Positions 33,227-64,000 of a DNA stretch of 64,000 bases are shown here, in pieces (position 1 is the first letter of the stretch; each line of letters begins with the position of its first letter). The notes under the pieces were generated by a model. The model was not told the DNA's origin, did not search any database, and saw only the letters and a program-made list of their open reading frames with translations. This DNA is from Acidimicrobiia bacterium. Its GTDB lineage: Bacteria > Actinomycetota > Acidimicrobiia > IMCC26256 > PALSA-555. A program made the position numbers and the translations under genes. The stretch covers positions 425-64,424 of the forward strand of contig DASZJD010000096.1 in the NCBI GenBank assembly GCA_035948415.1. The letters are read 5' to 3'.

Positions 33227-33244
33227 CCGACGCAAGCGCAGGCG

Positions 33245-40790: not shown

Positions 40791-41419
40791 TGGGCCGGCT
40801 CTCCGGCTTTCGCGTCACCTTGAGCCAGATGTTCAAGCCTCGGGTCACCGAGAACTACCCGGAGGAGAAGCGGCCGAAGCCGCCGCGCTTCCACGGCCGC
40901 CACGTCCTGAACCGCTACGAGGACGGGATGGAGAAGTGCATCGGCTGCGAGCTGTGCGCCGGCGTGTGCCCGGCCCGCTGCATCTACGTCCGCGGCGCCG
41001 ACAACCCGCCCGACGCACCCGTCTCCCCGGGGGAGCGGTACGGCTTCGTGTACGAGATCAACTACCTGCGGTGCATCCACTGCGACCTCTGCGTCGAGGC
41101 GTGCCCGACGGAGGCCATCACCGAGACGAGCCTGTTCGAGTTCTCGTTCCCGCGCCGCCAGGACGCGATCTACACCCGCGACGAGCTGCTCGTCGGCGAC
41201 GACGGCCGGGCCCGCCGGCAGCCCTGGGAGCTCTGGCTGGGTGGCGAGGACGACGACACGAGCGCGTGGATGCGGGCCACCTCGCCGTCGGGCAACGCGA
41301 TGTACGAAGGCCGGGTGGCCTGGTCGGGCGAGCTCGGCTTCGGCGTGCGTGAGCCGGAACGGGGCCAGCTCGAGGATGCGCCGGCACTGCCCGCGGGCGA
41401 GCTCGGTCCCGAGTCGTGA
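40790..41419 (+). CDS. nuoI: NADH-quinone oxidoreductase subunit I
   Basis: [12 protein letters not shown] and [12 protein letters not shown]. Long C-terminal tail. Confidence 0.9.
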
Positions 41420-41970
41420 CCGTCGCGCTCTTCTTCATCTTCGCCGGTCTCACCCTCGCCGGCGCGGTCGGGGTCGTGCTCGGTCGGAACCCGGTCCACT
41501 GCGCGCTGTTCCTCGTGCTCACGCTCGTCAGCGTGGCCGTGCTGTTCCTCATCCAGGACGCGCAGCTCGTCGCCGCGGTGCAGATCATCGTCTACGCCGG
41601 CGCGATCGTCGTGCTGTTCCTGTTCGTGATCATGCTGCTCGGTGTCGATCGCCCGGAGCGGCTCGAGGAGCCGCTCCGCCTCCAGCGCCCGGTCGCGCTC
41701 GGGCTGGGCGCCCTCGTCCTGGCCGAGGTGCTGTTCCTCGCCGGGCACCGGTGGGCGACCGGCGCCAAGACCGCCCGCGGCGTCGGGATCACCGGCGGGG
41801 CCTTCGGGAGCAACATCGAGCGGGTTGCCCGCGTCCTCTTCACGACCTTCTTGTGGCCGTTCCAGATCACCGCGGTGCTGCTCGTGATCGCCGTCGTCGG
41901 CAGCGTGGTCCTCGCCCGCCGGAGCGGGGAGCGGCCGGACCGGGAGCCGGCCGAGGGCGGCCCGCAGTGA
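41416..41970 (+). CDS. nuoJ: NADH-quinone oxidoreductase subunit J
   Basis: [40 protein letters not shown] overlap. Confidence 0.9.
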
Positions 41971-42284
41971 TCGCGGCGCTCACGATCACGCCGGCCTACT
42001 ACCTGGTTCTCGGCGCGGTGCTCTTCACGGTCGGCGCGGTCGGGCTCCTGCTCCGCCGGAACATCATCGTGATGTTCATGTGCATCGAGCTGATGCTCAA
42101 CGCCGTGAACCTGACCTTCGTGGCGTTCGCCAAGGCTCTGAACGACGTCGGAGGGCAGGTCCTCGTCTTCTTCACGCTCGTGGTCGCGGCCGCGGAGGTC
42201 GCGGTCGGCCTGGCGATCATCGTGGCGATCTTCCGCCGCCGCCGGGCCGCGACGGCCGACGACCTCCGGATCCTCGAGGGCTGA
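41967..42284 (+). CDS. nuoK: NADH-quinone oxidoreductase subunit K
   Basis: [30 protein letters not shown] overlap. Confidence 0.9.
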
Positions 42285-42308
42285 GCGCATGGGCGCCGGG
42301 GGGCTGGG

Positions 42309-44348
42309 GTGAGCGCGCGCGACGTGCTCGGGCTGGCCGGCATCGTTCCGCTGCTGCCGCTCGTCGGCGCCGCGGTGCTGATGCTGTGCGGCCGACGGCT
42401 CGGCCGCCCGGCGGCCGGGTGGCTGGCGACGGCGCTCGTCGGCGCCTCCTTCGCGTGGTCGGGCGCGCTGCTCGCGGCGCTGCTGAGCGTGCCGCCCGAG
42501 GCGCGCAGCCGCACCAGCGTCGTGTTCACGTGGCTCGCCGCCGACCAGCTCCACGTCCACATCGGGTTCCTGGCCGACCCGCTCTCGGTGACGTGGTGCC
42601 TGCTGGTCACCGGGGTGGGCTCGCTCATCCACCTCTATGCGATCGGCTACCTGCGCGACGACCCGAACTTCGGCCGGTTCTTCGCCTACTTCAACCTGTT
42701 CGTCGGCTCGATGCTGCTCCTCGTGCTCGCCGACAACTACCTCCTGACCTTCCTCGGCTGGGAGGGGGTCGGGCTGTGCTCGTACCTGCTGATCTCGTTC
42801 TGGTTCGAGCGGCACGCCGCCGCCCTCGGCGGGAAGAAGGCGTTCGTCTACAACCGCGTCGGCGACTTCGGGTTCATGCTGGCGATGTTCCTGCTCATCG
42901 CCCAGTTCGGCACCCTCGACTACGGCGCCACCGGCCACGCCGCCGCCCACGCGTCGGGCGGCGTCACGACCGCGGTGGCGCTCCTCCTGTTCCTCGGCTG
43001 CGTCGGCAAGAGCGCCCAGCTCCCGCTGTTCCCGTGGCTCACCGACGCGATGGAGGGCCCGACGCCGGTCTCGGCGCTCATCCACGCCGCCACGATGGTC
43101 ACCGCCGGCGTCTTCCTCGTCTGTCGCGCCCATCCGTTCTTCGACGCCAGCCCCGACGCGCAGACCGTGGTCCTGTGGATCGGCGGCGCCACCGCGCTGC
43201 TGGCCGGGACCATCGCCGTGCTGCAGCCCGACATCAAGCGGGTGCTCGCGTACTCGACGATCAGCCAGCTCGGGTTCATGTTCCTGGCCCTCGGCGCGGG
43301 CGCCTATACCGCCGCCATCTTCCTCGTCGTCGCGCACGCCTTCTACAAGGGCTGCCTCTTCCTCGGGGCCGGCTCGGTGATCCACGGCAACGCCGAGAAC
43401 CAGGACCTGCGGACGATGGGCGGGCTCCGCCGGTTCCTGCCGATCACCGCCGCCGGCATGGTCGTCGCCTGGCTGGCGATCGCCGGGGTCCCGCCGTTCG
43501 CCGGGTTCTGGGCGAAGGACGCCGTCCTCGAGGGCGCCTTCCTCCGCCACGACTACGGCGCCTGGGTCGTCGGCGTGCTGGCGGCGGTCATGACCGGCCT
43601 CTACATGACCCGGCTCATCGTGCTGACCTTCTTCGGCAACGAGCGCTTCCGTGACACCGGCGTGCCGGCGCCGGCGAGCGGCGGGTCCGACGACGACGTC
43701 GAGGCCGAGCTCGGCTACGACCCCGACTACGCCCCCACCGTCGTGTTCGGCGAGCCGCCCCGCCCGCCGCGCCTCCACGGCCACGACCCGCACGAGAGCC
43801 CGTGGACGATGGCGCTCCCAATCACGGTGCTCGCCCTCCTCTCCCTCGTGGGTGGCCTCCTGAACATCCCGCTGCGGGGGCTGACCTGGCTCGACACCTG
43901 GCTGGCGCCGGTGTTCCGCGGGGTGCACCAGCCCGCGCCGTCGTCGTTCGGCGGAGCCGCCGCGCTCACCGCCGCCGCGTTCGGGTTCGGCGCGGCCGGG
44001 ATCCTGGCCGCGTACCTCGCCTACCGACGGGGGCTGCCAAGCCCGGCCGACGATCCGCTGCAGGACCGGCTCGGCCCCGCCGCCGACGTGCTCGGCCACG
44101 GCTACTACTACGACGACACCATCTCGCTCGCCACCGACGGGCCCGTTCGCGCCACGGCCGAGTTCCTCGACCGCGACATCGACCACGGCGTCTTCGACGG
44201 GGCCGTGAACGGCACCGCCCGAGTAGTCCGAGAGACCGCCGACGGGCTCCGGCACGTCCAGGACGGGTTCGTCCGCCGCTACGCGGTCGGGATCGCGCTG
44301 GGCACGGCCGCGCTCCTCCTCTTCTTTCTCGCCTACGCGGGTCGCTGA
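42309..44348 (+). CDS. nuoL: NADH-quinone oxidoreductase subunit L
   Basis: 679 aa, antiporter-like; WEGVGLCSYLLISFW, GKSAQLPLFPWLTDAMEGPTPVSALIHAATMV. Confidence 0.9.
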   Translation: MSARDVLGLAGIVPLLPLVGAAVLMLCGRRLGRPAAGWLATALVGASFAWSGALLAALLSVPPEARSRTSVVFTWLAADQLHVHIGFLADPLSVTWCLLVTGVGSLIHLYAIGYLRDDPNFGRFFAYFNLFVGSMLLLVLADNYLLTFLGWEGVGLCSYLLISFWFERHAAALGGKKAFVYNRVGDFGFMLAMFLLIAQFGTLDYGATGHAAAHASGGVTTAVALLLFLGCVGKSAQLPLFPWLTDAMEGPTPVSALIHAATMVTAGVFLVCRAHPFFDASPDAQTVVLWIGGATALLAGTIAVLQPDIKRVLAYSTISQLGFMFLALGAGAYTAAIFLVVAHAFYKGCLFLGAGSVIHGNAENQDLRTMGGLRRFLPITAAGMVVAWLAIAGVPPFAGFWAKDAVLEGAFLRHDYGAWVVGVLAAVMTGLYMTRLIVLTFFGNERFRDTGVPAPASGGSDDDVEAELGYDPDYAPTVVFGEPPRPPRLHGHDPHESPWTMALPITVLALLSLVGGLLNIPLRGLTWLDTWLAPVFRGVHQPAPSSFGGAAALTAAAFGFGAAGILAAYLAYRRGLPSPADDPLQDRLGPAADVLGHGYYYDDTISLATDGPVRATAEFLDRDIDHGVFDGAVNGTARVVRETADGLRHVQDGFVRRYAVGIALGTAALLLFFLAYAGR

Positions 44349-45934
44349 TGGACTTCCCGATCCTCACCGCCATCATCGCCACGCCGCTGATCGGAGCGGT
44401 CGTCGTCCTGCTGGTGCCGTCGCGACGACCGGAGCTCGTGCACGCGGCGGGGTACGCGTTCACGGTCGCAACGCTCGGCCTGACCTGCTGGCTCCTGGCC
44501 AACTTCGCCACCAAGCAGGTCTTCTTCCAGTTCGTCGAGAACCGTCCGTGGTTCCCGGGACTCGGGTCCCGCTACATCGTCGGCGTCGACGGGATCAGCC
44601 TCTTCATGGTTCTGGCCACCGCGCTGCTCATCCCCGTCGGGCTGCTGGCCTCGCAGCGCTACCCGTCGGCGCGGCCGAAGGCGTACACGGCGTGGTTCCT
44701 CCTGCTCGAGTTCTCGCTCCTCGGGATCTTCCTGTCCCTCGACCTGATCATGTTCTTCGTGTTCTGGGAGATCCTGCTGGTCCCGATGTACTTCCTGATC
44801 TCGGGGTGGGGTCACGAAAATCGGCAGTACGCGGCGCTGAAGTTCTTTCTCTTCACCGCCGCCGGGTCGGCACTCCTGCTCGCCTGCACGCTGATCCTCG
44901 GGTTCCTCCACCAGGCCAGCACCGGGGTCCTGACCTTCGACTACCGGGTCCTCGCGGCCTGGTCGTGGCACGGGCTGTCGTCGACCACCGAGACGCTCCT
45001 GTTCCTCGGTTTCATGGCCGCGTTCGCGATCAAGGTGCCGCTCATCCCCGTGCACACCTGGCTCCCGGACGCGCACACCGAGGCGCCCACCGCCGGCTCG
45101 GTGGTCCTGGCCGGCGTCATCATCAAGATGGGCGCGTACGGGTTTCTCCGCTTCTCGTTCGAGCTGTTCCCGCACGCATCGGTCGACCTGGCGCCGGTCC
45201 TGCTGGTCCTGGGCGTCACGGGCATCCTGTACGGGGCGATCGTCGCCGCGATGCAGAAGAACCTCAAGCGGATCATCGCCTACTCGTCGATCGCCCACAT
45301 GGGCTTCGTCATCGTCGGGATCTTCTCCCTCACGGTGCTGGGGCTCGACGGCGCGGTGTTCACGATGCTCAGCCATCCCTTGACCACCGGTGCGCTGTTC
45401 CTCCTCGTCGGCATGCTCTACGAGCGTCGCCACACCTACGAGATCTCGGACTACGGCGGCGTGTGGCGTCCAGCGCCGATCCTCACCGCGCTCTTCCTCT
45501 TCGCGATGTTCGCCGGGATCGGGCTCCCCGGCTTCTCGGGGTTCATCGGCGAGTTCCTGTCCCTGGCCGGGACGTTCGTGTCGCGCCGGCCCTGGGCGAT
45601 CGCCGGCGCCGTCGGCGTGATCCTCGCCGCCGTCTACATGCTGTGGGCCTTCCAGCGCGCGTTCATGGGCAAGCCGTCGGAGACGACGATGCGACTGCCC
45701 GACGTCGGGCTCCGCGAGGTGTGCGTCGTCGCGCCGCTCCTCGCGGTGAGCCTCTTCCTTGGCCTGTACCCGCGGGCCGCCATCGATCGCATCGAGCCGT
45801 CCATCAAGCGCAGCATCGTGAACCTCGAGCTCAAGACCAACTTCCGCGAGAAGCGGCCGACGGGGTACGCCAAGACGGCGTTGCCCCCGGGCGTCACGAG
45901 CGACGAATCGATCCGCCTCGGTCTGCGGCGATGA
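44348..45934 (+). CDS. nuoM: NADH-quinone oxidoreductase subunit M
   Basis: FFVFWEILLVPMYFLI, VHTWLPDAHTEAPTAGSV. The ATG overlaps the nuoL stop. Confidence 0.9.
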   Translation: MDFPILTAIIATPLIGAVVVLLVPSRRPELVHAAGYAFTVATLGLTCWLLANFATKQVFFQFVENRPWFPGLGSRYIVGVDGISLFMVLATALLIPVGLLASQRYPSARPKAYTAWFLLLEFSLLGIFLSLDLIMFFVFWEILLVPMYFLISGWGHENRQYAALKFFLFTAAGSALLLACTLILGFLHQASTGVLTFDYRVLAAWSWHGLSSTTETLLFLGFMAAFAIKVPLIPVHTWLPDAHTEAPTAGSVVLAGVIIKMGAYGFLRFSFELFPHASVDLAPVLLVLGVTGILYGAIVAAMQKNLKRIIAYSSIAHMGFVIVGIFSLTVLGLDGAVFTMLSHPLTTGALFLLVGMLYERRHTYEISDYGGVWRPAPILTALFLFAMFAGIGLPGFSGFIGEFLSLAGTFVSRRPWAIAGAVGVILAAVYMLWAFQRAFMGKPSETTMRLPDVGLREVCVVAPLLAVSLFLGLYPRAAIDRIEPSIKRSIVNLELKTNFREKRPTGYAKTALPPGVTSDESIRLGLRR

Positions 45935-47418
45935 GACCACCGATCCTGCACCCGACCGTCAACTGGCTGGCGGTGTCGCCCGAGATCGCGCTCGGTGCCG
46001 CCGGCGTGGTCATCGTGATGCTGCGCGGCGTCCTGCGGCGACGCGCCCTCACCACGCCGCTCTGCGTGATCGTCGCGATCTCCGGGACCGTGGCCGCCGG
46101 CGCCGTGGAGTACCGGCTCTGGCACCTGCTCCGGCACCACCACGCCATCACGACCGTCGCCGGGATGGTGCGGGTCGACCTCTTCGGCGTGTTCCTCGGC
46201 GTGGTCGTCCTCGCCGCCACCATCCTGGCGATCCTGCTGTCGGTGGCATACCTGGGCCGTGAGGGCCTCGAGGCACCCGAGTACCTGGCGCTCATCCTGC
46301 TCTCCGCCGCCGGGATGCTGGCGATGACCACGGCCAACGACCTCATCGTCGTGTTCCTCGCGCTCGAGGTCCTCTCGATCCCGCTCTACGTGCTCGCCGC
46401 CTTCGACCGTCGACGGCTGAGCTCCCAGGAAGCCGGGATGAAGTACTTCGTGCTCGGGTCGTTCTCGTCGGCGATCTTCCTCTACGGCGTCGCGCTCACG
46501 TACGGCGCGACGGGCACGACGTCGCTGACCGGGATCGCCAGCTTCCTGTCTCGCAACACGCTGCTCGACCAGGGCACCCTCCTGGCGGGGATCGCCCTGC
46601 TCCTCGTCGGGCTCGGTTTCAAGGTCGCGGCCGTCCCCTTCCACATGTGGACACCCGACGTGTACCAGGGCGCGCCGACGCCGGTGACGTCCTTCATGTC
46701 GGCGGCGACGAAGGCCGCCGGCTTCGCCGCGTTGCTGCGCGTCTTCGGCGTCGCCTTCCCGCTCTACCGGAGCGACTGGCGCCCCGCGGCCTGGGCCCTC
46801 GCGGTGCTGTCCCTCGTCGTCGGCAGCGTCGCCGCCGTGATCCAGACCGACGTGAAGCGCATCCTGGCCTACTCCTCGATCGCGCACGCCGGGTACGTGC
46901 TCATCGGCTTCCAGACCGGCACGTCGCGGGGCCGGGAGGCGTCGCTGCTCTACCTGTTCGTCTACGCCTTCATGACCGTCGGCGCCTTCGCCGTCATCAC
47001 CGTGGCCGCCCGCCGCGGCGACGACCACCACTCGCTCGACGACTACCGAGGCTTGGCGCTCGACCGGCCCGTCGTCGGGGGGCTCCTGATCTTCTTCGTG
47101 CTCGCCCAGGCCGGCGTGCCGTTCACCGGCGGCTTCATCGCCAAGCTCGAGGTGTTCAGCGCCGCCGCCCAGGCCAACCAGTACGGGCTGCTCGTGATCG
47201 GGGTCCTGGCCGCGGTGGTCGCCGCCTTCTTCTACCTCCGCATCGCGTTCACCCTGCTCACTCCCGGGCCCGAGCCGGCGAGCTCGAGCGCCGGGCTCCG
47301 TCGCGTCGACGTGTGGAGCGGGGCCGTGCTCCTCGCCTGCGCCGCGCTCGTGCTCGTCGTCGGTGTCCTCCCCGGGGCGTTCGTGCACTGGGCGCGCGAC
47401 GCGACGTTCCTCCTCTGA
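45931..47418 (+). CDS. nuoN: NADH-quinone oxidoreductase subunit N
   Basis: [36 protein letters not shown] overlap. Confidence 0.9.
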
Positions 47419-50672: not shown

Positions 50673-51035
50673 GTGACCGAGTTCTACCGCCAGTATCTCG
50701 CCGTCGCTGTGCTCATCGGGGCCGCCGGCCTGATGTTCGGGGCCATGCTCGGCGTGGGCCGGCTCCTGCGGCCGACGCGACCCCAGCCGGAGAAGTTCAT
50801 CACCTACGAGGCCGGCTCGGACCCCGTGGGCGGGTGGGGCCAATCGAACGTCCGCTACTACGTCTACGCGCTCCTCTTCGTCATCTTCGACGTCGAGGCG
50901 GTGTTCGTGTTCCCCTGGGCGGTCGACCTGAAGACGCTCGACACCTTCGGGCTCATCGAGATGACGATCTTCATCGTGGTCCTGACCCTCGGGCTCGTCT
51001 ACGCCTGGCGCAAGGGGGTGCTCCGATGGGCCTGA
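50673..51035 (+). CDS. nuoA2: NADH-quinone oxidoreductase subunit A, second copy
   Basis: 120 aa with GTG start; [21 protein letters not shown]. Confidence 0.9.
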
Positions 51036-51541
51036 TGGACCGCGGCCACCTGCCGAAGCCCCTGACGTGGCTCCTGAACTACAGCCGCAAGTACTCGCTC
51101 TGGATGTTCCAATGGGGTCTGGCCTGCTGCGCCATCGAGATGGGCGCGGCGCTCGCCAGCCCGCGGTACGACGTGATGCGCCTCGGGGTCATTCCCTTCC
51201 CGGCCAGCCCTCGTCAGGCCGACCTGGTCGTCATCTCCGGCACCGTCACCGACAAGATGTCGCCGTCGATCAAGCGGCTCTACGAGCAGATCCCCGACCC
51301 GAAGTACGTCATCTCCATGGGCTCGTGCGCCAACTGCGGGGGCCCGTACTGGGACTCGTATTCGGTGACGAAGGGCGTCGACCAGGTGATCCCGGTCGAC
51401 GTGTACGTGCCCGGCTGCCCGCCGCGGCCCGAGGCCCTGCTCCAGGGGATTGTGCTGCTCCAGGAGCGGATCCAGCTCGAGGGCGTCGGCAACGACGAGC
51501 TCGAGAAGCGTTGGCGTGGGGAGCCGATCGTCGTTGGCTGA
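51026..51541 (+). CDS. nuoB2: NADH-quinone oxidoreductase subunit B, second copy
   Basis: [31 protein letters not shown]. Start is ATG 51026 or ATG 51035 (the latter overlaps the nuoA2 stop). Confidence 0.9.
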
Positions 51542-52226
51542 GGAGGCTGCCACCGAGGCGACCGAGGAGCCGGCGGCCCCCGACCCCGACCACGAGACGA
51601 TGCTCGACGCGCTGCGAGCCGGGCTCGGTGCGGACGCGATCGTGGATCACGCCGCGGTGTTCGGGGACCTCGTCGTGCGGGTGGCGCCGAGCGCCTGGAG
51701 CGAGGCGGCCGCGGTCGCTCAGGGTGACCTCGGCTGCGACTACCTCTCGTTCATCGCCGGGATCGACTGGGAGCCGGCGCCGAGGGAGGGTGACGAGGCC
51801 GGTGGCGACACGTCGGCGCCGGTGCAGCCGACCGAGCGGACCTACGGCGCCGCCGGCTCGGCCGGGCGGCTCCAGGTGTTCGCGCACGTCGAGTCGACGA
51901 CCGGGCCGCGTGGCCTCACCCTGAAGACCGACGTCGACGAGGCCGCGCCGTCCGTGGCCTCCTGGGTGCCGGTCTACCCCGGCGCGGACTGGCACGAGCG
52001 CGAGTGCTGGGAGATGTTCGGCGTCGTCTTCGAGGGGCACCCCTCGCTCCGGCACCTCTACCTCCCGAGCGAGTTCGAGGGTCACCCGCTGCGCAAGGAC
52101 TTCCCCCTGCTGGCCCGGGTCGTCAAGCCCTGGCCCGGGCTCGTCGACGTCGAGGCCATGCCCGGGGAGGGCGAGCCCACGGCGGTCGACGCCGGTGCCG
52201 CGCCCGAGGGCGAGGGCGCGTCGTGA
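51534..52226 (+). CDS. nuoC2: NADH-quinone oxidoreductase subunit C, second copy
   Basis: [36 protein letters not shown]. Acidic N-terminus, an internal ~35-aa insertion and an acidic tail. Start is uncertain (TTG 51534 or GTG 51516). Confidence 0.8.
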
Positions 52227-53407
52227 GCACCACCGGGACGCCGCCAGTCTCGGGCCTCGCGGTCGAGCGGTCCTCGCTGCGCCACCTCGCCGACGCCCAG
52301 GTCAACGTCGAGCTCGACACCGGCGACATGATCCTGAACCTCGGGCCCCAGCACCCGGCGACGCACGGCACGCTGCGCATCGTGGTCCGGCTCGACGGCG
52401 AGCGGGTCGTGAGCGCAGACCCGGTGATCGGCTACATGCACCGTGGCTACGAGAAGCTCACCGAGTTCCGGACCTATCCGCAGATCACGACGCTCATCAA
52501 CCGCATCGACTGGCTCTCCAGCTTCGCCAACGAGGTCCCCTTCATGGCCGCGGCCGAGGCCTTGATGGGCGTCGAGGCGCCGGCCCGGGCCGTCTACATC
52601 CGGACCGTCCTCACCGAGCTGTCGCGGATCGCCACGTTCCTGCTCTTCCTGGGCGAGATGGGGCTCCAGGTCGGCGCGCTCACCCCCGCCTTCTACGGCT
52701 TCCGGGACCGTGAGTACGTGCTGAACCTCATCGAGGCCGCCACCGGGGGGCGGTTCCACCCCAACTTCAACCGCATCGGCGGGCTGAAGGACGACCTGCC
52801 GTGGGGGTGGATCGCCGAGTGCCGCTCGACGATGAAGGTCGTCCTCGATGCCTGCGACGACTTCGAGGACCTCGTGCTGAAGAACGAGATCTTCGGGGCT
52901 CGCACCAAGGGCATCGGCATCATCCCGCCGACGGTCGGGGCCGGCTACGGCGTCTCGGGGTCGAACCTGCGGGCCTCGGGCGTGGACTGGGACCTGCGGC
53001 GAGACCGCTCCTACCTCGCGTACCCGGAGCTCGACTTCCAGGTGTGGACCCACCCCGACGGCGACTCGTACTCGCGCTACTGGGTCCGGCTCCAGGAGAC
53101 GCGCGAGGCCGCACGGATGGTGCTGCAGTGCCTCGACCAGATGCCGAGCGGCCCGGTCATGGCGAAGGTGCCGCGCATCATCAAGGTGCCGGAGGGCGAG
53201 ATCTGGGTGGAGACCGAGAACCCGCTCGGTCAGATGGGCTACTACGTGATCTCGAAGGGGGCCACGGGTCCGTTCCGGGTCAAGATCCGGTCGGCATCGT
53301 TCAGCAACGTCTCGATCCTGCCCTGGCTGCTGCGGGGCGTCTACGTGCCGGACGTCATCACGATCCTGGCGTCCCTCTACTTCATCCTCGGCGACATCGA
53401 CCGATGA
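52223..53407 (+). CDS. nuoD2: NADH-quinone oxidoreductase subunit D, second copy
   Basis: [25 protein letters not shown]-terminal end ..[13 protein letters not shown] overlap. Confidence 0.95.
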
Positions 53408-54441
53408 GCACGCTCCCGACGCTGGCGCTCAACATCGGGTGGGGCTCGACGCTGGCCATCAAGACCGTCGTCATCCTCGCCGTCATCCCCCTTGGCGCTC
53501 TGATCCTCGGGTACGTCTTCCTCCTGAAGATGATGAGCCACATGCAGAGTCGCCTGGGGCCGATGGACCCCGGAGGCTTCCACGGCTGGTACCAGCTCGT
53601 CGGCGACGGCCTGAAGTTCCTCCAGAAGGAGGACGTCATGCCGGCCCAGTCCGACCGGCGGGTCTTCGCCGCCGCGCCGGCGGTGGTGGTGATGTCGACG
53701 TTCCTCGTGTTCCTCGTCATCCCGATGGGCCCCGACCTCGTCGTGAAGGATCTCGACGTCGGCGTCTTCTACGCCCTCGCCGTGTCGAGCCTCTCGGTCG
53801 TCGGGGTCCTCATGGCGGGATGGGCGAGCGCGAACAAGTACGCGCTCCTCGGCGCCCTGCGGGCTGCGGCCCAGCTCATCGCCTACGAGCTGCCGTTGCT
53901 CCTGGCCGTCGTGGGCGTCGTCATCCAGGCCGGCACGATGAGCCTCCAAGGAATCGTCCTGGCCCAGCAACGCGGCTCGATCTTCGGGTGGGGAGGTCTC
54001 GGCGAGCCCTTCGTTCTCACCCAGCTCATCGGGTTCGCGCTGTTCCTCGTCGCGTCGCAGGCCGAGCTCACCCAGACGCCCTTCGACATGCCGGTCGCCG
54101 AGAGCGAGCTCGTCGCCGGCTACATGGTCGAGTACACGGGCTTTCGATTCCTGTTCTTCTTCATCGGCGAGTTCGGCACCGCGTTCGCGTTCGCCGCGAT
54201 CGCGGCCACGCTCTTCCTGGGCGGCTGGGCGATCCCGGGCGTCAGCGGCGACTGGGCGAACATCCTCGGCCCGGCGGTGCTCTTCGCCAAGCTCATGGCC
54301 GTCGCGTTCCTGATGTTCTGGGTCCGGTTCACCTACCCCCGGCTTCGCGAGGATCAGCTGCAGGCGGTGGCGTGGAAGTACCTGATCCCGCTCGGGCTTG
54401 CCAACATTCTCCTGACCGGTGTCTTCAAGGTGGCGTTCTGA
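53404..54441 (+). CDS. nuoH2: NADH-quinone oxidoreductase subunit H, second copy
   Basis: [29 protein letters not shown] overlap with nuoD2. No nuoE/F/G lies between D2 and H2. Confidence 0.9.
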
Positions 54442-54935
54442 TGCCGGCGAAGCTGCCCCGCCCGAAGGTCCCGGGTCTCATCGGTGGGCTCGGCGTCACG
54501 CTGAAGACCATGCTGCGACCGGCGGTGACGGTCCAGTACCCGCACGAGAAGGAGTCGCCGGCGCCCCGAGCCCGAGGCGTCATCGCGCTGAAGGAGGAGA
54601 ACTGCACGGTCTGCATGCTCTGTGCTCGGCAGTGTCCCGACTGGTGCATCTACATCGAGGGACACAAGGAGCAGCGGCCGCCGCGCCGTGAGGGAGGGCG
54701 GCCTCGCTCGGTGAGCGTGCTCGACCGCTTCGACATCGACTATGCCCTCTGCATGTACTGCGGGATCTGCGTCGAGGTGTGCCCGTTCGACGCGCTGTTC
54801 TGGAGCCCCGAGTACGAGTACTCGGAGTTCCAGATCTCGCGTCTGCTCCACGACAAGGTCAAGCTGGGCGAGTGGATGGAGACCGTGCCGGAGCCCGAGC
54901 CGCTCGAGGTGGGCGCCGAATCGGGGAAGCGCTAG
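54441..54935 (+). CDS. nuoI2: NADH-quinone oxidoreductase subunit I, second copy
   Basis: [12 protein letters not shown] and [12 protein letters not shown]. Confidence 0.9.
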
Positions 54936-54941: not shown

Positions 54942-55448
54942 ATGTGGGAGCAGCAGGTCGCCTTCTGGATCCTCGCAGTGGCGATCGCCGCGGCGGGGTT
55001 CGGAGTCGTCCGGTCCCGGAACATCGTCCACGCCGCGCTGTTCCTCGTCGTCGTCCTGGCCGGTGCCGCCGCGCTCTACATCCTGCTCGCGGCCGAGTTC
55101 GTGGCCTGGGTCCAGGTCCTGATCTACATCGGCGCGGTCGTGATCCTGTTCCTGTTCGGCATCATGCTCACCCGCGCGCCGATGGGGATGGCCGGGTCCC
55201 GCCTCGACAACGACCAGCGCTGGGGCGCGGTGGTGGTGTCCCTCTTCGTGCTGGGCGTGCTGGTGACCCTCCTCGTCGACGCCTTCGGAGGCAAGCAGAT
55301 CCACTTCAGCAGCAGGCTCGTCGCGCTGGGCCGGACCGCCACGGTGGGCAAGGACATCTTCCGCGTCTACGTGGTGCCGTTCGAGGTCGTCTCGATGCTC
55401 CTGCTGGCCGCGCTCGTCGGGGCCGTCGTCCTCGCCCGGAAGGACTGA
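54942..55448 (+). CDS. nuoJ2: NADH-quinone oxidoreductase subunit J, second copy
   Basis: [35 protein letters not shown]. Confidence 0.9.
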
Positions 55449-55449: not shown

Positions 55450-55749
55450 GTGGCGCTCAACGAGTTCCTCATCCTCAGCGCGGTGTTGTTCTGCACCGGC
55501 ATCTACGGTGTCCTCGCCCGCCGGAACGGGGTGCTGGTCCTGATGAGCGTCGAGCTGATGCTGAACGCCGTCAACATCAACCTCGTGGCGTTCGCGGCGT
55601 TCACGAAGAACGTGAGCGGGCAGATCTTCGCGCTGTTCGTGATCACGATCGCCGCCGCCGAGGTTGGGGTCGGCCTGGCCATCGTGTTGCTCATCTACCG
55701 GAACCTGCATAGCCCCGACCTCGACGAGATCGATCAGCTGAAGGGCTGA
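55450..55749 (+). CDS. nuoK2: NADH-quinone oxidoreductase subunit K, second copy
   Basis: [26 protein letters not shown]. Confidence 0.9.
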
Positions 55750-55756: not shown

Positions 55757-57814
55757 GTGCTTCAGAACGCCTGGCTCGTCCCGTCGCTGCCCGCGGCCTC
55801 GTTCCTCGCCATCCTGCTGTTCGGCAAGCGGGCGGGGAGGCAGGCGGCCTGGTGGGGGATCGGCGCCGTCGGGGCGTCGTTCGTCGCCGCCTGCGTCGCC
55901 GCCGGCCAGTGGATCCAGCGGGTCGACGACGCCACCGGGCGGAGCCAGGGCCTCGCCGCCTTCGCCAAGGGCCTCCCGACCGGTGGGGCGCACACCGTGG
56001 TGAGGCCCGTCACCGAGTCGGTCACCTGGTGGCAGAACGGCGGCGTGAAGTTCGGAGTCGGGACGTACGTGGACGGTCTGACGGTCCTGATGCTCGTGGT
56101 CGTCACGCTTATCTCGTTGCTCGTCCAGATCTACTCGACCGCCTACATGCGCGGCGACCGCCGCTACACCTGGTACTTCGCCGCGCTGTCGCTCTTCACC
56201 GCGTCGATGCTGACGCTGGTCGTGGCCGAGAACACGGTCGAGCTGCTCGTGGGCTGGGAGCTGGTCGGCCTGTGTTCCTTCATGCTGATCGGGCATTGGT
56301 GGGAGGAGCCCGAGAACAGCCGAGCCGCCATCAAGGCCTTCCTCACCACCCGGACCGGCGACATCGGGCTGATGATCGGGATCATCGTCCTGTTCTTCGC
56401 GGTCGGGTCGTTCGGCGTCGGCGCCACCAACCTGTACGCGAGCGGCAGCCATGCGCACCACGACCTGCTCCTCGCCGCCGCCGTGTGCCTGATGGTCGCC
56501 ATCATCGGCAAGAGCGGCCAGTTCCCGCTCCACACCTGGCTCCCCGACGCGATGGCCGGACCGACGCCGGTCTCTGCGCTCATCCACGCCGCCACCATGG
56601 TCGTGGCCGGCGTCTTCCTCGGCGCCCGCCTCTACCCCGTTCTGTTCAACGGGTTCTCGATCGCCCACGGCGGCGTGAACTTCATGGCGCTGATCGGCGG
56701 GGTGACGATCCTCGTCGGCGCGGTGCTGGCCTTCGTGCAGCACGACATCAAGAAGGTGCTGGCGTACTCCACCATCAGTCAGCTCGGGTACATGGTGCTG
56801 GCGCTCGGCGTGGGGGCGTGGACCGCGGCGATCTTCCACCTCTTCACGCACGCCTTCTTCAAGGCGCTCCTCTTCCTCGGCGCCGGCTCGGTGAGCCACT
56901 CCGCCGGCCATTCGTTCGACATGCGGGAGATGGGCGGGCTCCGGAAGCCGATGCCGATCACGTTCTGGACCTTTGTGATCGGGTCCCTCGCACTGGCCGG
57001 GATCTTCCCGCTCGCCGGGTTCTGGTCGAAGGACGAGATCCTGGTGAACGCCGGCGCCAACGGCTACACCGCCTTCCTCGTCCTCGGCTTGATCGGCGCC
57101 TTCCTCACCGCCGCGTACATGACCCGGGCCGTCTACCTGACCTTCTTCGGCGAGTTCCGGGGCCACGGGCAACCACACGAGTCGGAGCGGGCGATCACCA
57201 CCCCGCTCGTCGTCCTCGGCGCGCTGTCGGTCGGCGCAGGCCTCGTCAACGCCGCTCCGCTGGGCCTCGAGAAGATCAAGGACTGGGTCGAGCCCACCTT
57301 CGCCTTCCCGAGCATCGGCCACGCCGCCTTCGACTACCCGAAGGCGGTCCTCTCGGTCGGGATCGCGCTGGTGGCGATCGGGGTCGCGGCGTACTACTGG
57401 TTCCGGCGCGACGACCTCCCGGCGCTGAGCGGCCTGACCGAGCGCAGCGTGCTGGCGCGCCGGGGCTACACGCTGCTCGTGAACAAGCTCTACCTCGACG
57501 ACCTGTACGAGAAGGTGATCATCGCGGGGATCCGAGGTCCCGTGGCGCGGATCGCGTACTGGATCGACCAGAACGTGATCGACGGCGTCGTGAACGGCCT
57601 CGGCCGCGGTGCCGTCGTCGTCGCCCGCTACACGTACGCCGTCGTGGACCAGCGGCTCGTCGACGGTGCCGTGAACGAGCTGGCGCACGAGGCCGGGGCC
57701 GCGGGCGGCGAGCTGAGCCGCGTCCAGTCCGGGCGCCTCCAACGGTACGCGCTGCTGCTCTTCGCCGGTGTGGGCGTGCTGAGCCTCGCCCTGCTCTTGA
57801 CGAACACGATCTGA
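55757..57814 (+). CDS. nuoL2: NADH-quinone oxidoreductase subunit L, second copy
   Basis: 685 aa; WELVGLCSFMLIGHWW, GKSGQFPLHTWLPDAMAGPTPVSALIHAATMV. Confidence 0.9.
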   Translation: MLQNAWLVPSLPAASFLAILLFGKRAGRQAAWWGIGAVGASFVAACVAAGQWIQRVDDATGRSQGLAAFAKGLPTGGAHTVVRPVTESVTWWQNGGVKFGVGTYVDGLTVLMLVVVTLISLLVQIYSTAYMRGDRRYTWYFAALSLFTASMLTLVVAENTVELLVGWELVGLCSFMLIGHWWEEPENSRAAIKAFLTTRTGDIGLMIGIIVLFFAVGSFGVGATNLYASGSHAHHDLLLAAAVCLMVAIIGKSGQFPLHTWLPDAMAGPTPVSALIHAATMVVAGVFLGARLYPVLFNGFSIAHGGVNFMALIGGVTILVGAVLAFVQHDIKKVLAYSTISQLGYMVLALGVGAWTAAIFHLFTHAFFKALLFLGAGSVSHSAGHSFDMREMGGLRKPMPITFWTFVIGSLALAGIFPLAGFWSKDEILVNAGANGYTAFLVLGLIGAFLTAAYMTRAVYLTFFGEFRGHGQPHESERAITTPLVVLGALSVGAGLVNAAPLGLEKIKDWVEPTFAFPSIGHAAFDYPKAVLSVGIALVAIGVAAYYWFRRDDLPALSGLTERSVLARRGYTLLVNKLYLDDLYEKVIIAGIRGPVARIAYWIDQNVIDGVVNGLGRGAVVVARYTYAVVDQRLVDGAVNELAHEAGAAGGELSRVQSGRLQRYALLLFAGVGVLSLALLLTNTI

Positions 57815-57833: not shown

Positions 57834-59378
57834 ATGCACTGGTTCGACGACTCAGCGCTGACCCTGGCGGCGTTCATCCCGCTGGCGGGGTTGGCGGCGG
57901 TGCTGCTCATCCCCACCGCGCGGGAGCGGGCGATCAAGGTCACCGCCCTGGTGGCGTCGGTCGCGACCGCGCTCGTCGGAGTCGGCATCCTCGCCGACTT
58001 CGACTACGGCCACGCCGGGCGCCTCCAGTTCATCATCGACAAGCCGTGGATCTCGGTGATCAAAGCGCGGTACCACATGGGCGTCGACGGGATCGGGCTC
58101 CCGCTCCTGATCCTCTCGATGGTCATGGTGGTTGCCTGCGTCGTGTACTCGTGGAACCACTTCCCGGAGCCGCACAGCCCGAAGGCGTTCCTGGCCCTCA
58201 TCCTCCTCCTCGAGGTCGGGATGAACGGGACCTTCATGGCCCAGGATCTCATCCTCTTCTTCGTCTTCTTCGAGCTCGTCCTGCTGCCGATGTTCTTCAT
58301 GATCGGGGTCTGGGGTGGCGCGAACCGGCAGTACGCGGCGATCAAGTTCTTCCTCTTCACCCTGTTCGGGTCGGCGCTGATGCTCGTGAGCTTCCTGGCG
58401 ATCTTCTTCCTGTCGAAGAACCAGACCTTCCAGATGCCCGAGCTCTCGCACCTCGGCGGTGCCGGCATCGCCCACGGCACCCAGGTGCTCGTGTTCGGCG
58501 GTCTCTTCCTGGGATTCGCGATCAAGGTGCCGATGTTCCCCTTCCACACCTGGCTGCCCGACGCCCACACCGAGGCCCCGACGGTCGGATCGGTGCTGCT
58601 GGCGGCGATCCTGCTGAAGCTCGGCACCTACGGATTCATCCGCATCGCGTTGCCGATCCTGCCGAGCGCGGCCCGGACCTGGGCCCCGTGGCTCGGCCTG
58701 CTGGCGGTGATCGGGATCATCTACGGCGCGCTGTGCTGCCTGGCCCAGCGGGACATGAAACGCCTGATCGCCTTCTCGTCGGTGGCCCACATGGGCTTCG
58801 TCATGCTCGGCATCGCGACCCTGACGAGCTTCGGGCTGAACGCGGCGGTGTTCGGCATGGTCGCCCACGGGCTCATCACGGGCATGCTCTTCTTCGTCGC
58901 CGGCTCGGTCCAGGAGCGCTACGAGACCCGAGAGATGAGCCGGCTCGGCGGGCTGCTCACCCAGGCCCCCCGGCTGGGGTGGATCCTCGGGTTCTGCGCC
59001 ATGGCGTCGCTCGGGCTTCCCGGCCTCGCCGGGTTCTGGGGCGAGTTCCCGTCGATCCTGTCGTCGTACAACCCCGCCCGCCTGGCCCAGGGCCTCCTGA
59101 ACGGCGACCACCTCGTCACCTTCCGCGTGTTCATGGTCGTCGCCGCTGTCGGCACCGTGCTCGCGGCCGGCTACCTCCTCTGGATGTACCAGCGGGTCGC
59201 CTTCGGCTCGGCCAGCGCCGAGTTCCGGACCGCCCACATCCACGACGTCCACGTCCCGGAGTGGGTGGCCTGGACGCCGCTGCTCCTCCTGATCACCGCG
59301 CTCGGCGTCTACCCGAACCTCGTGTTCCACATGAGCAACGGCGCGGTCACGAACGTCAGCCGAGTCTTCGGTGGGTGA
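57834..59378 (+). CDS. nuoM2: NADH-quinone oxidoreductase subunit M, second copy
   Basis: FFVFFELVLLPMFFMI, FHTWLPDAHTEAPTVGSV. Confidence 0.9.
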   Translation: MHWFDDSALTLAAFIPLAGLAAVLLIPTARERAIKVTALVASVATALVGVGILADFDYGHAGRLQFIIDKPWISVIKARYHMGVDGIGLPLLILSMVMVVACVVYSWNHFPEPHSPKAFLALILLLEVGMNGTFMAQDLILFFVFFELVLLPMFFMIGVWGGANRQYAAIKFFLFTLFGSALMLVSFLAIFFLSKNQTFQMPELSHLGGAGIAHGTQVLVFGGLFLGFAIKVPMFPFHTWLPDAHTEAPTVGSVLLAAILLKLGTYGFIRIALPILPSAARTWAPWLGLLAVIGIIYGALCCLAQRDMKRLIAFSSVAHMGFVMLGIATLTSFGLNAAVFGMVAHGLITGMLFFVAGSVQERYETREMSRLGGLLTQAPRLGWILGFCAMASLGLPGLAGFWGEFPSILSSYNPARLAQGLLNGDHLVTFRVFMVVAAVGTVLAAGYLLWMYQRVAFGSASAEFRTAHIHDVHVPEWVAWTPLLLLITALGVYPNLVFHMSNGAVTNVSRVFGG

Positions 59379-59381: not shown

Positions 59382-60839
59382 GTGAACCCGCACGTCGACT
59401 TCCACGCCCTCGCGCCCGAGATCGTCCTCACCGCGACGATCATCGTCGTGCTCGTCGTCGACCTCTTCACCGACGATCCCAAGCTCCCGGCCCAGATCTC
59501 AAGCTTCGGGATCCTCGGCTCGCTCATCCCGGTGCTCACGCTCGCCGTCGACGGCGGGACCCGCTCGCTGTTCGGCGGCGCGTTCGTGGTGGACGCGTAC
59601 TCGCTCGTCCTCACGGGGTTCTTCCTCGTGGCCGGGTACGTCACGCTGCTCGTCTCCTTCGACTACATCGGCGAGGGCGACTACTACCAAGGGGAGTACT
59701 ACGTCCTCCTGCTGACCTCGGTGCTCGGCATGGTCGCCATCACGTCAGCCCGAGACCTCGTGTCGCTCTTCGTCGCGCTCGAGACCCTCACGATCCCGAC
59801 CTTCGTCCTCGCCGCGTGGCGGAAGCACGACACCAGGTCCAACGAGGCCGGCATCAAGTACTTCCTGATCGGCGTGCTGTCCTCGGCCGTCATGCTCTAC
59901 GGCATGTCGATCATCTTCGGGCTCGCGAACTCGACCGTCCTCATCGACATCCACCGCTATGCGAGCGGCAGCACGCCAACCCTCTTCGCGGTCGCGGTCT
60001 TCCTCACGCTGGTTGGGTTCGCCTTCAAGGTGAGCGCCGTCCCCTTCCACTTCTGGGCCCCGGACACCTACGAGGGCGCGCCGACACCCGTGACCGCGTT
60101 CCTGTCCGTCGCCTCGAAGGCCGGAGGGTTCGTGGCCCTGCTGACCATCGTGCGGTTCGGGTTCTTCCCGTCCGGCGACTCGTGGCAGCCGGCGTTGTGG
60201 GTGCTCGCGGCGGCGTCGATGACGCTCGGGAACCTCGCCGCGCTGCGGCAGACGAACGTGGTCCGCATGCTCGCCTACTCCTCGGTGGCGCAGGGCGGGT
60301 TCATCCTCGTGCCCCTCGCGGTCGCCGGCGACGTCCACGGCAACAGCGCCTGGCAAGCCGTCATCATCTACATCCTCATCTACGGCGCCATGAACTTGGG
60401 CGCCTTCGCGGCCGTGATCGCCGCCGCCCGCCGCACCCGATCGGCGGAGATCCCGAGCTACGCCGGGCTCGGCCGCACCAGCCCCGCCGTCGCGGTCATG
60501 TTCACGCTGTTCCTGTTCTCGCTGGCCGGCGTGCCACCGCTCGCGGGCTGGTTCGCCAAGTTCGTGATGTTCCGCGCCGTGTTCGACGCCAACACCACCG
60601 CCGCCGTGGTGCTCGGCGTCATTGCGGCCGTCAACTCCGTGATCGCGTTCTTCTACTACGCGGGCGTCGCACGCCGGTTCTGGTTCGAGGAGCCCTCCGA
60701 CGGTGTCGCCCCGGCCACGGCCCGCGTGCCCGTCGGGCTGGGCGCGGCCATGGCCCTCATGACGGCCGTGATCCTCGTCGTCGGCGTGTATCCCCAGTTC
60801 TTCGCCCGCCTCGGTGAGCTTGCGTTCCAGCGGGGATGA
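59382..60839 (+). CDS. nuoN2: NADH-quinone oxidoreductase subunit N, second copy
   Basis: FVALETLTIPTFVL, PFHFWAPDTYEGAPTPVT. Confidence 0.9.
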   Translation: MNPHVDFHALAPEIVLTATIIVVLVVDLFTDDPKLPAQISSFGILGSLIPVLTLAVDGGTRSLFGGAFVVDAYSLVLTGFFLVAGYVTLLVSFDYIGEGDYYQGEYYVLLLTSVLGMVAITSARDLVSLFVALETLTIPTFVLAAWRKHDTRSNEAGIKYFLIGVLSSAVMLYGMSIIFGLANSTVLIDIHRYASGSTPTLFAVAVFLTLVGFAFKVSAVPFHFWAPDTYEGAPTPVTAFLSVASKAGGFVALLTIVRFGFFPSGDSWQPALWVLAAASMTLGNLAALRQTNVVRMLAYSSVAQGGFILVPLAVAGDVHGNSAWQAVIIYILIYGAMNLGAFAAVIAAARRTRSAEIPSYAGLGRTSPAVAVMFTLFLFSLAGVPPLAGWFAKFVMFRAVFDANTTAAVVLGVIAAVNSVIAFFYYAGVARRFWFEEPSDGVAPATARVPVGLGAAMALMTAVILVVGVYPQFFARLGELAFQRG

Positions 60840-62038
60840 CCCGCCTCGGCCCGGTCCGAGGTCCTCGTAGCGGCGCCGTGTCCGAGGTCGGCCCCGCCCC
60901 GCAGCTGCGCGAGCGCATCCGCCGAGCCGGGCCGATCCCGTTCGCCGACTTCCAGGCCGCCGCCCTCGACGCCTTCTTCGCCCACCGCGGCGCTGGCCGC
61001 GCCGGCCGCGACTTCGTGACCAGCCCGGAGGTCGGGCCGCTCTTCGGCGCGCTCGTGGCGCGGGCGCTCGACGAGACCTGGGTGCGGCTGGGCCAGCCCG
61101 ATCCCTTCGTGTTCGTCGACGCCGGCGGCGGCCGGGGCCGGCTGGTGGCCGACGTCCTGCGGGCCGAGCCGGCGTGCGCGCCGGCGCTGCGGGCCGTGCT
61201 CGTCGAGCGGTCCGCCACCCTGCGGGCCGACGCCCGCGCCCTCCTCGCGCTCGAGCCCCCGGCGGTCGCGCTCGGTGCGTTCGCGGCCACGACGCGCGAC
61301 GAGCCGCCCGAGCCGGTGGCCGGCACCGGGCCCGTGGTCACTGTCCTCGACGACCTGCCCGACCTCCCACTGACCGGGGTCGTCGTCGCGAACGAGCTCC
61401 TCGACAACCTGCCCGTGCGCGTCGTCGAGCGGGGCCCCGGCACCTGGCGGGAGGTGCGCGTCGGGCTCGCCGACGGCGCCTTCATGGAGGTGCTCGTCGA
61501 CGCCTCGGCCGAGCTCGGTGTTGCGGCCGACGAGCTGACCGCGGGCGTCACGCCGCGCCCGGGGGAGCGCGTGCCGGTCCCGGTCGGAGCGGCGGGCTGG
61601 CTCGAGCGCAGCGCGACGACGCTTCGGCGCGGCGAGCTCTGGGTCGTCGACTACGCCGACGACACCGCCGGCCTGCTGGCCCGTGGGCCCCACGGGCCGT
61701 CCGGGTGGCTGCGCACGTACCGGGGCCACGGGCGCGGCAGCGACCCGCTCGACGCGCCGGGCGCGCAGGACATCACCACCGACGTCCCGCTCGGGTGGCT
61801 GCGGCGCGCCGCCCTCCGAGCCGGCTACGCGGTGGCCCTCGACACGAGGCAGACGGAGTGGCTCCGCAGCCTCGGCATCGATGCGCTCGTCGACGAGGGC
61901 CGGCGCCGCTGGGACGCTCGGGCCCACCTCGGGGACCTCGAGGCCGTCGCCGGGCGCAGCCGGTCCGTGGAGGCGAGCGCGCTCACCGATCCCTCCGGCC
62001 TCGGTGGACACCGAGTCGTCGTCCTCGCCCGCACCTGA
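60836..62038 (+). CDS. MidA/NDUFAF7-like (DUF185) SAM-dependent methyltransferase
   Basis: ATG overlaps the nuoN2 stop (ATGA). Motifs [22 protein letters not shown] and [12 protein letters not shown] (SAM GxGxG) are typical of the family. Confidence 0.7.
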
Positions 62039-62117: not shown

Positions 62118-64000
62118 ATGCCGGAGACGATCGAGTCGCTGCTCGCCGAGGGCCGGACGTTTCGACCCCCGGCCGAGTTCAAGCGCGACGCGCTCGTGAC
62201 CGGCGTCGAGATCTACGAGGAGGCCGACCGCGACCTCGAGGGCTTCTGGGCTCGACAGGCGGCCGAGCTGCTCGACTGGTCCGAGGAGTGGCACACGATC
62301 CTGGAGTGGGACCTGCCGTTCGCGAAGTGGTTCGTGGGCGGGAAGCTGAACGCGACCCACAACTGCCTCGACCGCCACGTCGCCGCCGGCCACGGCGGGC
62401 AGGTCGCCTATCACTGGGAGGGCGAGCCGGGCGACACGCGCACGATCACGTACTCGGAGCTGCTCGAGGAGGTCTGCCGCCTCGCCAACGCGCTGCGCGA
62501 GCTCGGGGTGCGGAAGGGGGACCGCGTCAACATCTACCTGGGCATGGTTCCCGAGCTGCCCGTCTCCTTGCTCGCCTGCGCCCGGATCGGCGCGCCCCAC
62601 TCGGTCGTGTTCGGGGGCTTCTCCTCCGACTCCCTCCGCGACCGCATCAACGACGCCGAGGCCAAGGTCCTGATCACCGGCGACGGCGCCTGGCGGCGCG
62701 GCAGCGTCGTCCCCCTCAAGGAGACCGCGGACGTCGCCCTGGCCGACTGCCCGACGATCGAGCGGGTGCTCGTGCTCCGCCGCACCGGCCAGGACGGCGT
62801 CGCCATGCGCGACGGGCGCGACGTCTGGTGGGACGACGTGGTCCCCCGCCAGTCGTCGACCTGCCCGGCCGAGGTCATGGACGCCGAGGACCTCCTCTAT
62901 CTCCTGTACACGAGCGGGACGACGGCCAAGCCCAAGGGGATCATGCACACGACGGGCGGGTACCTGACCCAGGTCGCGTTCACCCACCGCTACGTGTTCG
63001 ACCTGAAGCCCGAGACCGACGTGTACTGGTGCGCGGCCGACGTCGGCTGGGTGACCGGCCACTCGTACATCGTGTACGGACCGCTCGCGAACCGGGCCAC
63101 CAGCGTCCTCTACGAGGGCACGCCCGACTTCCCCGACAAGGACCGGCTCTGGCGGATCGTCGAGCGCTACCGCGTGACGACCCTCTACACGGCGCCGACG
63201 GCCATCCGCACGTTCATGAAGTGGGGTCCCGAGTTCCCGGGACGGCGCGACCTGTCGTCGCTGCGCCTGCTCGGCACCGTCGGGGAGCCGATCAACCCCG
63301 AGGCCTGGGTCTGGTACTGGCAGCACATCGGCGGGGGGCGATGCCCGGTCGTCGACACGTGGTGGCAGACGGAGACGGGCGCCATCATGATCAGCCCGCT
63401 GCCCGGCGCGACCACGCTCAAGCCCGGCAGCGCCACGTTCCCCCTCCCGGGCATCGGCGCCGACGTGGTGAACGACGCCGGCGCGGCGGTTCCGATCCCC
63501 GGCGGCGGCTACCTCGCGCTCACCCGGCCGTGGCCGGCGATGCTACGGGGCATCTGGGGCGACCCGCAGCGGTACCGCGACACCTACTGGTCGCGCTTCG
63601 AAGGCCGGTACTTCGCCGGCGACGGCGCCAAGCGCGACGAGGACGGCTACTTCTGGTTGCTCGGGCGGGTCGACGACGTGATGCTGGTCTCCGGCCACAA
63701 CATCTCCACCGCCGAGGTGGAGCACGCCCTGGTCGGCCACCCCGCGGTGGCCGAGGCCGCCGTCGTCGGGCGGGCCGACGCCACGACGGGCCAGGCGATC
63801 GCCGCGTTCGTCACCTTGCGCTCCGGCACCGAGCCGAGCGACGAGCTCGTCGAGGCGCTGCGGGCCCACGTCGCGCACACCATCGGCCCCATCGCCCGAC
63901 CCCAGTCGATCCTGTTCACCGAGGACCTGCCGAAGACCCGCTCGGGCAAGATCATGCGGCGGCTGCTCCGCAACGTCAGTGAGGACGAGGCCCTCGGCGA
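62118..64000 (+). CDS. acs: acetyl-CoA synthetase (3' end outside window)
   Basis: My own translation from ATG 62118 reads [67 protein letters not shown]. The frame is open to nt 64000, so it is absent from the ORF track. Tracked ORF 62288..63982 is a different, spurious frame. Confidence 0.9.

Follow-up and report, generated by a model that had tools for sequence, protein, structure and literature searches.

Why should a methyltransferase gene follow directly on the genes of a respiratory complex, and which protein would it modify? The question is raised by a 64,000-nucleotide (nt) stretch of DNA from an Acidimicrobiia bacterium (contig DASZJD010000096.1; hereafter the window), which has a G+C content of 72% and encodes two versions of complex I. 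One operon, nuo1, is the canonical 14-gene set. The other, nuo2, is a compact run of 11 genes, all on one strand and in the order nuoABCDHIJKLMN, with overlapping stop and start codons at several junctions. Downstream of nuoN2 lies a gene of the MidA/NDUFAF7 family (PF02636, COG1565) on the + strand, at 60878-62038 (386 amino acids, aa; the longest open reading frame, or ORF, is 60836-62038, with 400 aa from ATG 60836). We think it probable that this gene is the last of a nuoA2-N2 transcript and that its product, a MidA-type protein arginine methyltransferase, dimethylates Arg74 of NuoD2 while the second complex is being assembled. The gene arrangement points to an isoform-specific maturation factor for the second complex I.

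The product of 60878-62038 belongs to the MidA/NDUFAF7 family and has a MidA-type fold. Its score for PF02636 (Methyltransf_28, formerly DUF185) is 128.2 bits, where the gathering cutoff is 23.3 (E=4.6e-37), and the match spans profile positions 1-239 of 249; none of the NCBIfam models matched the protein. A sequence search of the PDB returned matches only to three solved family members, from Burkholderia (4f3n), R. palustris (1zkd) and Dictyostelium (MidA, 5ztz). An AlphaFold2 model, built with 30 relatives as input, had a mean predicted local distance difference test score (pLDDT) of 90.3 and a predicted template modelling score (pTM) of 0.89. In Foldseek comparisons, the six best matches were all of the MidA family (4g67, 4f3n, 5ztz, 5zu0, 1zkd), with template modelling (TM) scores of 0.72-0.80, and non-MidA methyltransferases came next at TM <=0.51. 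Hallmark motifs of the family are a glycine-rich S-adenosylmethionine (SAM) motif I, DF[IV]T[SA]PE, ANE..D..P, DY and QD[IL]T. The protein contains motif I as VDAGGGRG, together with the other family motifs, including QDIT (QDITTDV here); all of them are invariant in 30 relatives and line up with the same motifs in 4f3n, 1zkd and 5ztz. An earlier reading of this DNA, made from its sequence alone (the sequence-only reading), had held that the motifs fit the MidA/DUF185 family, and profile and structure comparisons bear this out. Since neither the SAM-binding motif nor the family motifs vary within the clade, we infer that SAM-dependent catalytic activity has been retained. No second MidA paralogue was found in the window, and a protein search of a plasmid collection gave a single weak Paenibacillus match with no informative context.

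The candidate substrate follows from what is known of the family. NDUFAF7, an assembly factor of mitochondrial complex I, symmetrically dimethylates Arg85 of NDUFS2, the sole characterised substrate of the family (PMC3829151), and Arg65 of Nqo4 is symmetrically dimethylated in Paracoccus denitrificans (PMC3750175). The dimethylated arginine is numbered bovine 85, Yarrowia 121 and Paracoccus 65 in the literature (PMC3750175, PMC8042128). Ungapped phmmer alignments placed NuoD2 Arg74 at bovine 85 (5o31_D), Yarrowia 121 (6gcs_C) and Paracoccus Nqo4 65 (8qby_D). The mature bovine NDUFS2 sequence used for the numbering is 100% identical to PDB 6q9b_S2/5o31_D and has R85 in GLLHRGTEK. Since the alignment offsets equal the literature numbers, the sequence-only reading was correct in equating the target with NDUFS2 Arg85 of the HRGxEK motif. 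It had also given the codons correctly. Arg74 of NuoD2 is encoded by CGT at 52442-52444, within GYMHRGYEK, and NuoD1 has Thr in the same column (ACG, 34039-34041). This Thr is shared with M. smegmatis NuoD (IGYLHTGIEK) and T. thermophilus Nqo4 (IGYLHTGFEK), in line with the remark by Carroll et al. (2013) that bovine Arg85 stands in place of the Thr of the Thermus enzyme (PMC3750175). As NuoD1 has Thr there, it cannot be modified at this position, which supports NuoD2 as the sole NuoD in the window able to carry the methylarginine. Among NuoD2 sequences encoded beside a methyltransferase, GYMHRGYEK is invariant (64/64).

The two isoforms also differ at a second site. NuoB2 has Pro59 (51200-51202; FPASPRQ), and NuoB1, around 32.9 kb, keeps Arg (FRASPRQ). 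In bovine PSST this NuoB column holds a hydroxylated Arg77, again in FRASPRQ (peptide DRFGVVFRASPRQS; PMC3750175). With Arg in D2 and Pro in B2, and with Thr in D1 and Arg in B1, the isoforms are thus reciprocal at two modified Q-site arginines.

Conservation of gene order provides the third line of evidence. A genome scan covered one genome per GTDB species, and its 80 loci are the best of at least 558 relatives; sufficient flanking DNA was available at 70 loci for nuoN2 (upstream) and at 60 for acs, the acetyl-CoA synthetase gene that follows in the window. A second scan, of metagenomes, took the most distant representatives as queries (33-48% methyltransferase identity) and added 44 and 30 assessable loci, respectively, so that 114 Acidimicrobiia-type loci could be scored for nuoN2 in genomes and metagenomes together. 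We refer to relatives' loci by L-numbers and to homologous database proteins by P-numbers, as labelled in this analysis. nuoN2 lies directly upstream of the methyltransferase gene in 66/70 genome loci and 41/44 metagenome loci (107/114 together, 94%), and the adjacency persists down to 33-48% methyltransferase identity. acs lies directly downstream in 38/60 and 13/30 loci, the junction being broken in about 43%. At the locus of P0185 (42% identity, on a 3.3-Mb contig), nuoB-N followed by the methyltransferase gene are kept, and the downstream genes are unrelated (HD, asd). Linkage to nuoN2 has thus been conserved, as a trait particular to this lineage. That the nuoN2 junction is far better kept than the acs junction suggests selection on co-expression with nuo2, beyond inherited synteny. 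For the same reason we rejected acs as the main partner of the methyltransferase gene. A functional tie to nuo2, as put forward in the sequence-only reading, gains comparative support from this adjacency and from the Arg in all 64 linked NuoD2 proteins.

In the mechanism that we propose, the methyltransferase would be made from the 11-gene nuo2 transcript, as its last gene, and would symmetrically dimethylate Arg74 on free NuoD2, before NuoD2 docks onto NuoB2. The site is predicted to lie close to cluster N2, where NuoD meets NuoB. Dimethyl-Arg74 would then promote docking of NuoD2 onto NuoB2, as NDUFAF7 does for NDUFS2 and NDUFS7, and methylation would stabilise the Q-module of the second complex I, which lacks NuoE, NuoF and NuoG. 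For the dimethyl-Arg beside cluster N2, an earlier study could not separate cluster tuning from an assembly lock (PMC8042128).

Several observations weigh against this proposal. Arg occupies the same column in mitochondrial, cyanobacterial (NdhH) and E. coli NuoD and is the common, and probably the ancestral, state of the family; E. coli NuoCD has the Arg unmodified (PMC3750175). Hence the Arg is necessary but not diagnostic for methylation. E. coli is not known to possess a MidA homologue. The methyltransferase is far more divergent than the Nuo2 subunits: when L004-L083 are compared with the L003 proteins, its mean identity is 53%, versus 80-88% for NuoB2, NuoD2, NuoH2, NuoI2 and NuoK2 (76% for ACS). 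In 7/114 loci, other genes lie between nuoN2 and the methyltransferase gene, or nuo genes are missing upstream, so the methyltransferase can be made independently of nuo2. The alphaproteobacteria, in which the modification is proven, have midA behind lgt in the loci examined, and no nuo genes occur there within 10 kb. Finally, synteny inside one class could partly reflect shared descent.

The fast divergence would also suit a methyltransferase that serves Nuo2 in another way, as a non-catalytic assembly chaperone or by methylating a different residue or subunit. The conserved junction with nuoN2 speaks for a connection to Nuo2 only, not for a given residue, and fast divergence is frequent in accessory factors. 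We nevertheless regard both variants as unlikely. Invariance of the SAM-binding and family motifs across the clade argues that catalysis has been kept, and the family's sole characterised substrate is exactly this Arg (PMC3829151), which is present in NuoD2 at every linked locus (64/64).

It is quite unlikely that the adjacency is inherited synteny only and that the enzyme acts on an unrelated protein, for example one from the block of acs, HAD_PNKP and GNAT genes further downstream. Such a reading would draw on the origin of all linked loci from one class-level lineage, on the presence of acs after the methyltransferase gene in just over half of the loci, and on the alphaproteobacterial arrangement, in which midA stands after lgt and nuo is not nearby. 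Yet the two junctions have fared differently: that with nuoN2 is kept in 94% of loci, whereas that with acs is broken in about 43% and fully replaced in the case of P0185. The known function of the family, moreover, concerns complex I.

The start of the gene bears on how it is tied to nuo2. At 60836-60839 the window reads ATGA, the TGA being the nuoN2 stop, and the 400-aa ORF is open from ATG 60836. On this basis the sequence-only reading had described a 12th, translationally coupled cistron. The overlap and the ORF (60836-62038) are indeed there; the coupling is not supported, since the conserved start is GTG 60878. Homologues close in sequence, including P0002 (86% identity), begin at the equivalent of V15, which is this GTG. 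Between the nuoN2 stop and the GTG lies a spacer of 38 nt (60840-60877, + strand), which accounts for the 14 extra codons of the 400-aa model. Among the nearest relatives, the same spacer measures 37 nt (L001, L005) or 40 nt (L003, L004, L006), and it ranges from -4 to about 100 nt over the 80 relatives. The ATG recurs in L001, L004, L005 and L006 because a GGA Gly codon precedes the TGA. As the spacer lengths differ by non-multiples of 3, the equivalent ATG is out of frame in relatives, and in L001 its frame is closed by TAG. Moreover, A or T is the third base in 4 of the 14 extra codons, against a G+C content at third codon positions of 95.3% for the gene (binomial P=0.003), as in non-coding DNA. 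The gene is therefore most likely 60878-62038, with a GTG start and 386 aa, and the ATGA overlap is probably meaningless.

A genuine 400-aa form, started at ATG 60836 and coupled to nuoN2 through the ATGA, could appeal to the in-frame ATG and open ORF of this genome, to a GTGA overlap in L050 and to the 1-10 nt spacers of several relatives. We consider it improbable, given the GTG start of the homologues, the out-of-frame or stop-closed ATG in L001, L004, L005 and L006, and the non-coding-like composition of the extra codons.

The methyltransferase gene has the traits of an operon member (same strand, short spacer, a junction without a terminator-like site, conserved adjacency), and it lacks a used and conserved start that overlaps the upstream stop, as translational coupling would call for. 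A pattern scan found no terminator-like or promoter-like site at either methyltransferase junction; for terminators it gave 3 matches versus 3.6 expected, none of them at the junction with nuoN2. RNA folding of the spacer was not significant (z=-1.6). Given the shared strand, the short spacer and the lack of such sites in the scan, co-transcription of nuoN2 and the methyltransferase gene is plausible. A GTAGCC/CTAGCC-like motif is found at 60867-60872, ~10-14 nt upstream of the conserved GTG, and recurs in L001, L003, L004, L005 and L006. It is in frame with neither nuoN2 nor the methyltransferase gene, and may reflect simple low divergence or be a ribosome-binding or promoter element.

A nucleic-acid substrate, put forward for Wolbachia MidA on the strength of the adenine and cytosine DNA methylation reported when it was expressed in E. 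coli (PMC12455994), is hardly credible here, because the gene context contains nothing DNA-related, the conserved partner is a respiratory complex, and the structural neighbours are MidA proteins only.

How does the predicted enzyme compare with known systems? It shares with NDUFAF7/MidA of human and Dictyostelium the PF02636 family, the fold (TM 0.72-0.76 to 5ztz/5zu0) and the hallmark motifs, and its predicted target falls in the same NuoD/NDUFS2 alignment column, with Gly next to it (RG). It differs in that identity is about 21-22%, that its gene is bacterial (Actinomycetota, Acidimicrobiia) and shares an operon with the genes of the presumed substrate complex, that this complex has 11 subunits and lacks the NADH module, and that the activity here is predicted. 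The alphaproteobacterial case (R. palustris 1zkd) likewise combines a bacterial MidA with an HRG-type NuoD Arg, but the complex there is a single 14-subunit enzyme, and discrimination between paralogues is not involved. A methyltransferase called urf7 in R. capsulatus was set aside as a comparator, being a different, 257-aa protein from work carried out in silico only (PMC9036352).

Closest in gene order is Candidatus (Ca.) Actinomarina, also of the Acidimicrobiia, in which heliorhodopsin, nuoABCDHIJKLMN, NDUFAF7 (PF02636), htpX and pspE form a cluster with a 14-subunit complex I nearby (Bulzu et al., bioRxiv 10.1101/2021.02.01.429150). The NDUFAF7 of that cluster was already read as an assembly accessory (same preprint). 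In both loci, a PF02636 gene thus comes after the 11-subunit nuo operon, and a 14-subunit complex I is encoded close by. They differ in their flanks: upstream, the window has a divergent patatin-like gene and no heliorhodopsin or afu genes, and downstream it has acs and HAD_PNKP. The Ca. Actinomarina paper mentions neither the Arg/Thr difference of the NuoD paralogues nor the breadth of the linkage. Enzymes of the 11-subunit 'ancestral' complex I type, for example in Desulfitobacterium (Moparthi & Hagerhall 2011, as cited in PMC11238625), resemble nuo2 in having nuoABCDHIJKLMN without nuoEFG. The operon here differs in its conserved 12th gene; the Desulfitobacterium paper (PMC11238625) does not mention a methyltransferase.

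What was already known, then, is the family and its role in complex I, the dimethyl-Arg65 of Paracoccus Nqo4, and the gene order in Ca. Actinomarina. Apparently new are the division of the two NuoD paralogues into an Arg and a Thr type, the breadth and strength of the nuoN2-methyltransferase linkage, the contrast with alphaproteobacteria and the corrected start codon. To our knowledge, none of the bacterial MidA enzymes has been tested on its substrate. The sequence-only reading had stated that no bacterial MidA homologue has a demonstrated substrate; this is roughly true, in that a 2025 paper describes prokaryotic MidA function as 'only inferred in silico' (PMC12455994), although the dimethylation of Paracoccus Nqo4 Arg65 has itself been demonstrated (PMC3750175). 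An enzyme encoded in the operon of its presumed target offers clean genetic evidence for an enzyme-substrate pair outside Proteobacteria. In the same lineage, the other complex I has Thr at the site by nature, which allows methyl-Arg and Thr isoforms to be compared, and annotation gains a likely corrected gene start. The value of these findings is limited, since the gene order had been mentioned before and few hosts are in culture. A bolder, speculative extension, which we would not expect to hold, is that NuoD methylation by MidA is an old, operon-encoded trait of the 11-subunit 'ancestral' complex I in Actinomycetota and not a proteobacterial or mitochondrial invention, with methyl-Arg versus Thr acting as an isoform mark that steers NuoD2 to NuoB2 and prevents mixing of Q-modules.

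The two operons are laid out as follows. nuoE, nuoF and nuoG were not found in nuo2, and in the window they are present in nuo1 only; the sequence-only reading had described the gene content of both operons in this way. All nuo2 genes are on the + strand. nuoA2 is at 50673-51035 (PF00507, E=3.9e-35), and nuoB2 at 51026-51541, its product being 94% identical to L003 NuoB2 by tblastn and retaining the cluster N2 cysteines. nuoC2 spans about 51534-52226 (PF00329, tblastn). Its start is uncertain, the candidates being TTG 51534, by analogy with an 8-nt overlap in L003, and GTG 51516. nuoD2 (52223-53407, 394 aa) begins with a GTGA overlap with the nuoC2 stop. The remaining genes were located by tblastn against the L003 operon, to which nuoH2-nuoN2 show 80-96% identity: nuoH2 at 53404-54441, nuoI2 at 54441-54935, nuoJ2 at 54942-55448, nuoK2 at 55450-55749, nuoL2 at 55757-57814, nuoM2 at 57834-59378 and nuoN2 at 59382-60839, the last two with Pfam and NCBIfam matches as well. 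In nuo1, the B to N genes lie at about 32699-47418, with nuoD1 at 33790-35079 (+ strand; NCBIfam NuoD, 532 bits), nuoE at 35076-35579, nuoF at 35576-36913 and nuoG at 36910-39591. pgi and the divergent patatin-like gene sit between nuo1 and nuo2, the latter gene forming the upstream flank of nuo2; because these two genes part it from nuo1, nuo2 is a separate unit. On the other side, acs (62118-64000, + strand, continuing past the window end; ACAS_N, AMP-binding and AMP-binding_C domains) starts after a gap of 80 nt from the methyltransferase ORF and was not counted as part of the nuo2 unit.

Minor observations concern the loci of relatives. The loci that depart from the common order have insertions of 1-2.5 kb, several of them with opposite-strand genes, or wholly different upstream genes. 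Insertions between nuoN2 and the methyltransferase gene occupy L033 4072-5301 (-), L075 8958-9998 (-) and L086 7725-9978, and their contents are a 409-aa ATPase-like ORF (identified by eye), a secreted esterase-like ORF and a PemK toxin module with prephenate dehydratase. Because of these inserted genes, the methyltransferase gene would require its own promoter in L033, L075 and L086. In Bradyrhizobiaceae-like contigs of alphaproteobacteria, lgt (PF01790) stands immediately before the midA homologue (L088 9585-10582, L089 9443-11337), and a single database protein, P0305, has both lgt and midA domains. Apparent fusions were discarded. In-frame joins of NuoN2 and the methyltransferase in L051, L063 and L068 are artefacts of tblastn extension across the stop, and neither P0165 (867 aa, NuoN2-methyltransferase) nor P0211 (487 aa, methyltransferase-ACS) is a real fusion, both looking like frameshifted read-through in poor assemblies.

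On the 3' side of the methyltransferase gene, a recurring block in L001-L003 and many other loci comprises acs, a HAD_PNKP phosphatase, YajQ, a GNAT acetyltransferase and in some cases HtpX (Peptidase_M48), with tuf, rpmG, secE, nusG and rplK after it. In the Ca. Actinomarina cluster, htpX likewise comes after NDUFAF7. The nearest relatives of the window's proteins come from metagenome-assembled genomes labelled Acidimicrobiia or Actinomycetota. Further genes of the window lie at 13896-14723 (+), 20861-22312 (+), 25722-26951 (-) and 30778-32064 (+). Among them are a SAM hydroxide adenosyltransferase (PF01887/PF20257), a fused uroporphyrinogen methylase/HemD and a dihaem cytochrome c, and an FAD-dependent reductase gene is located just upstream of nuo1.

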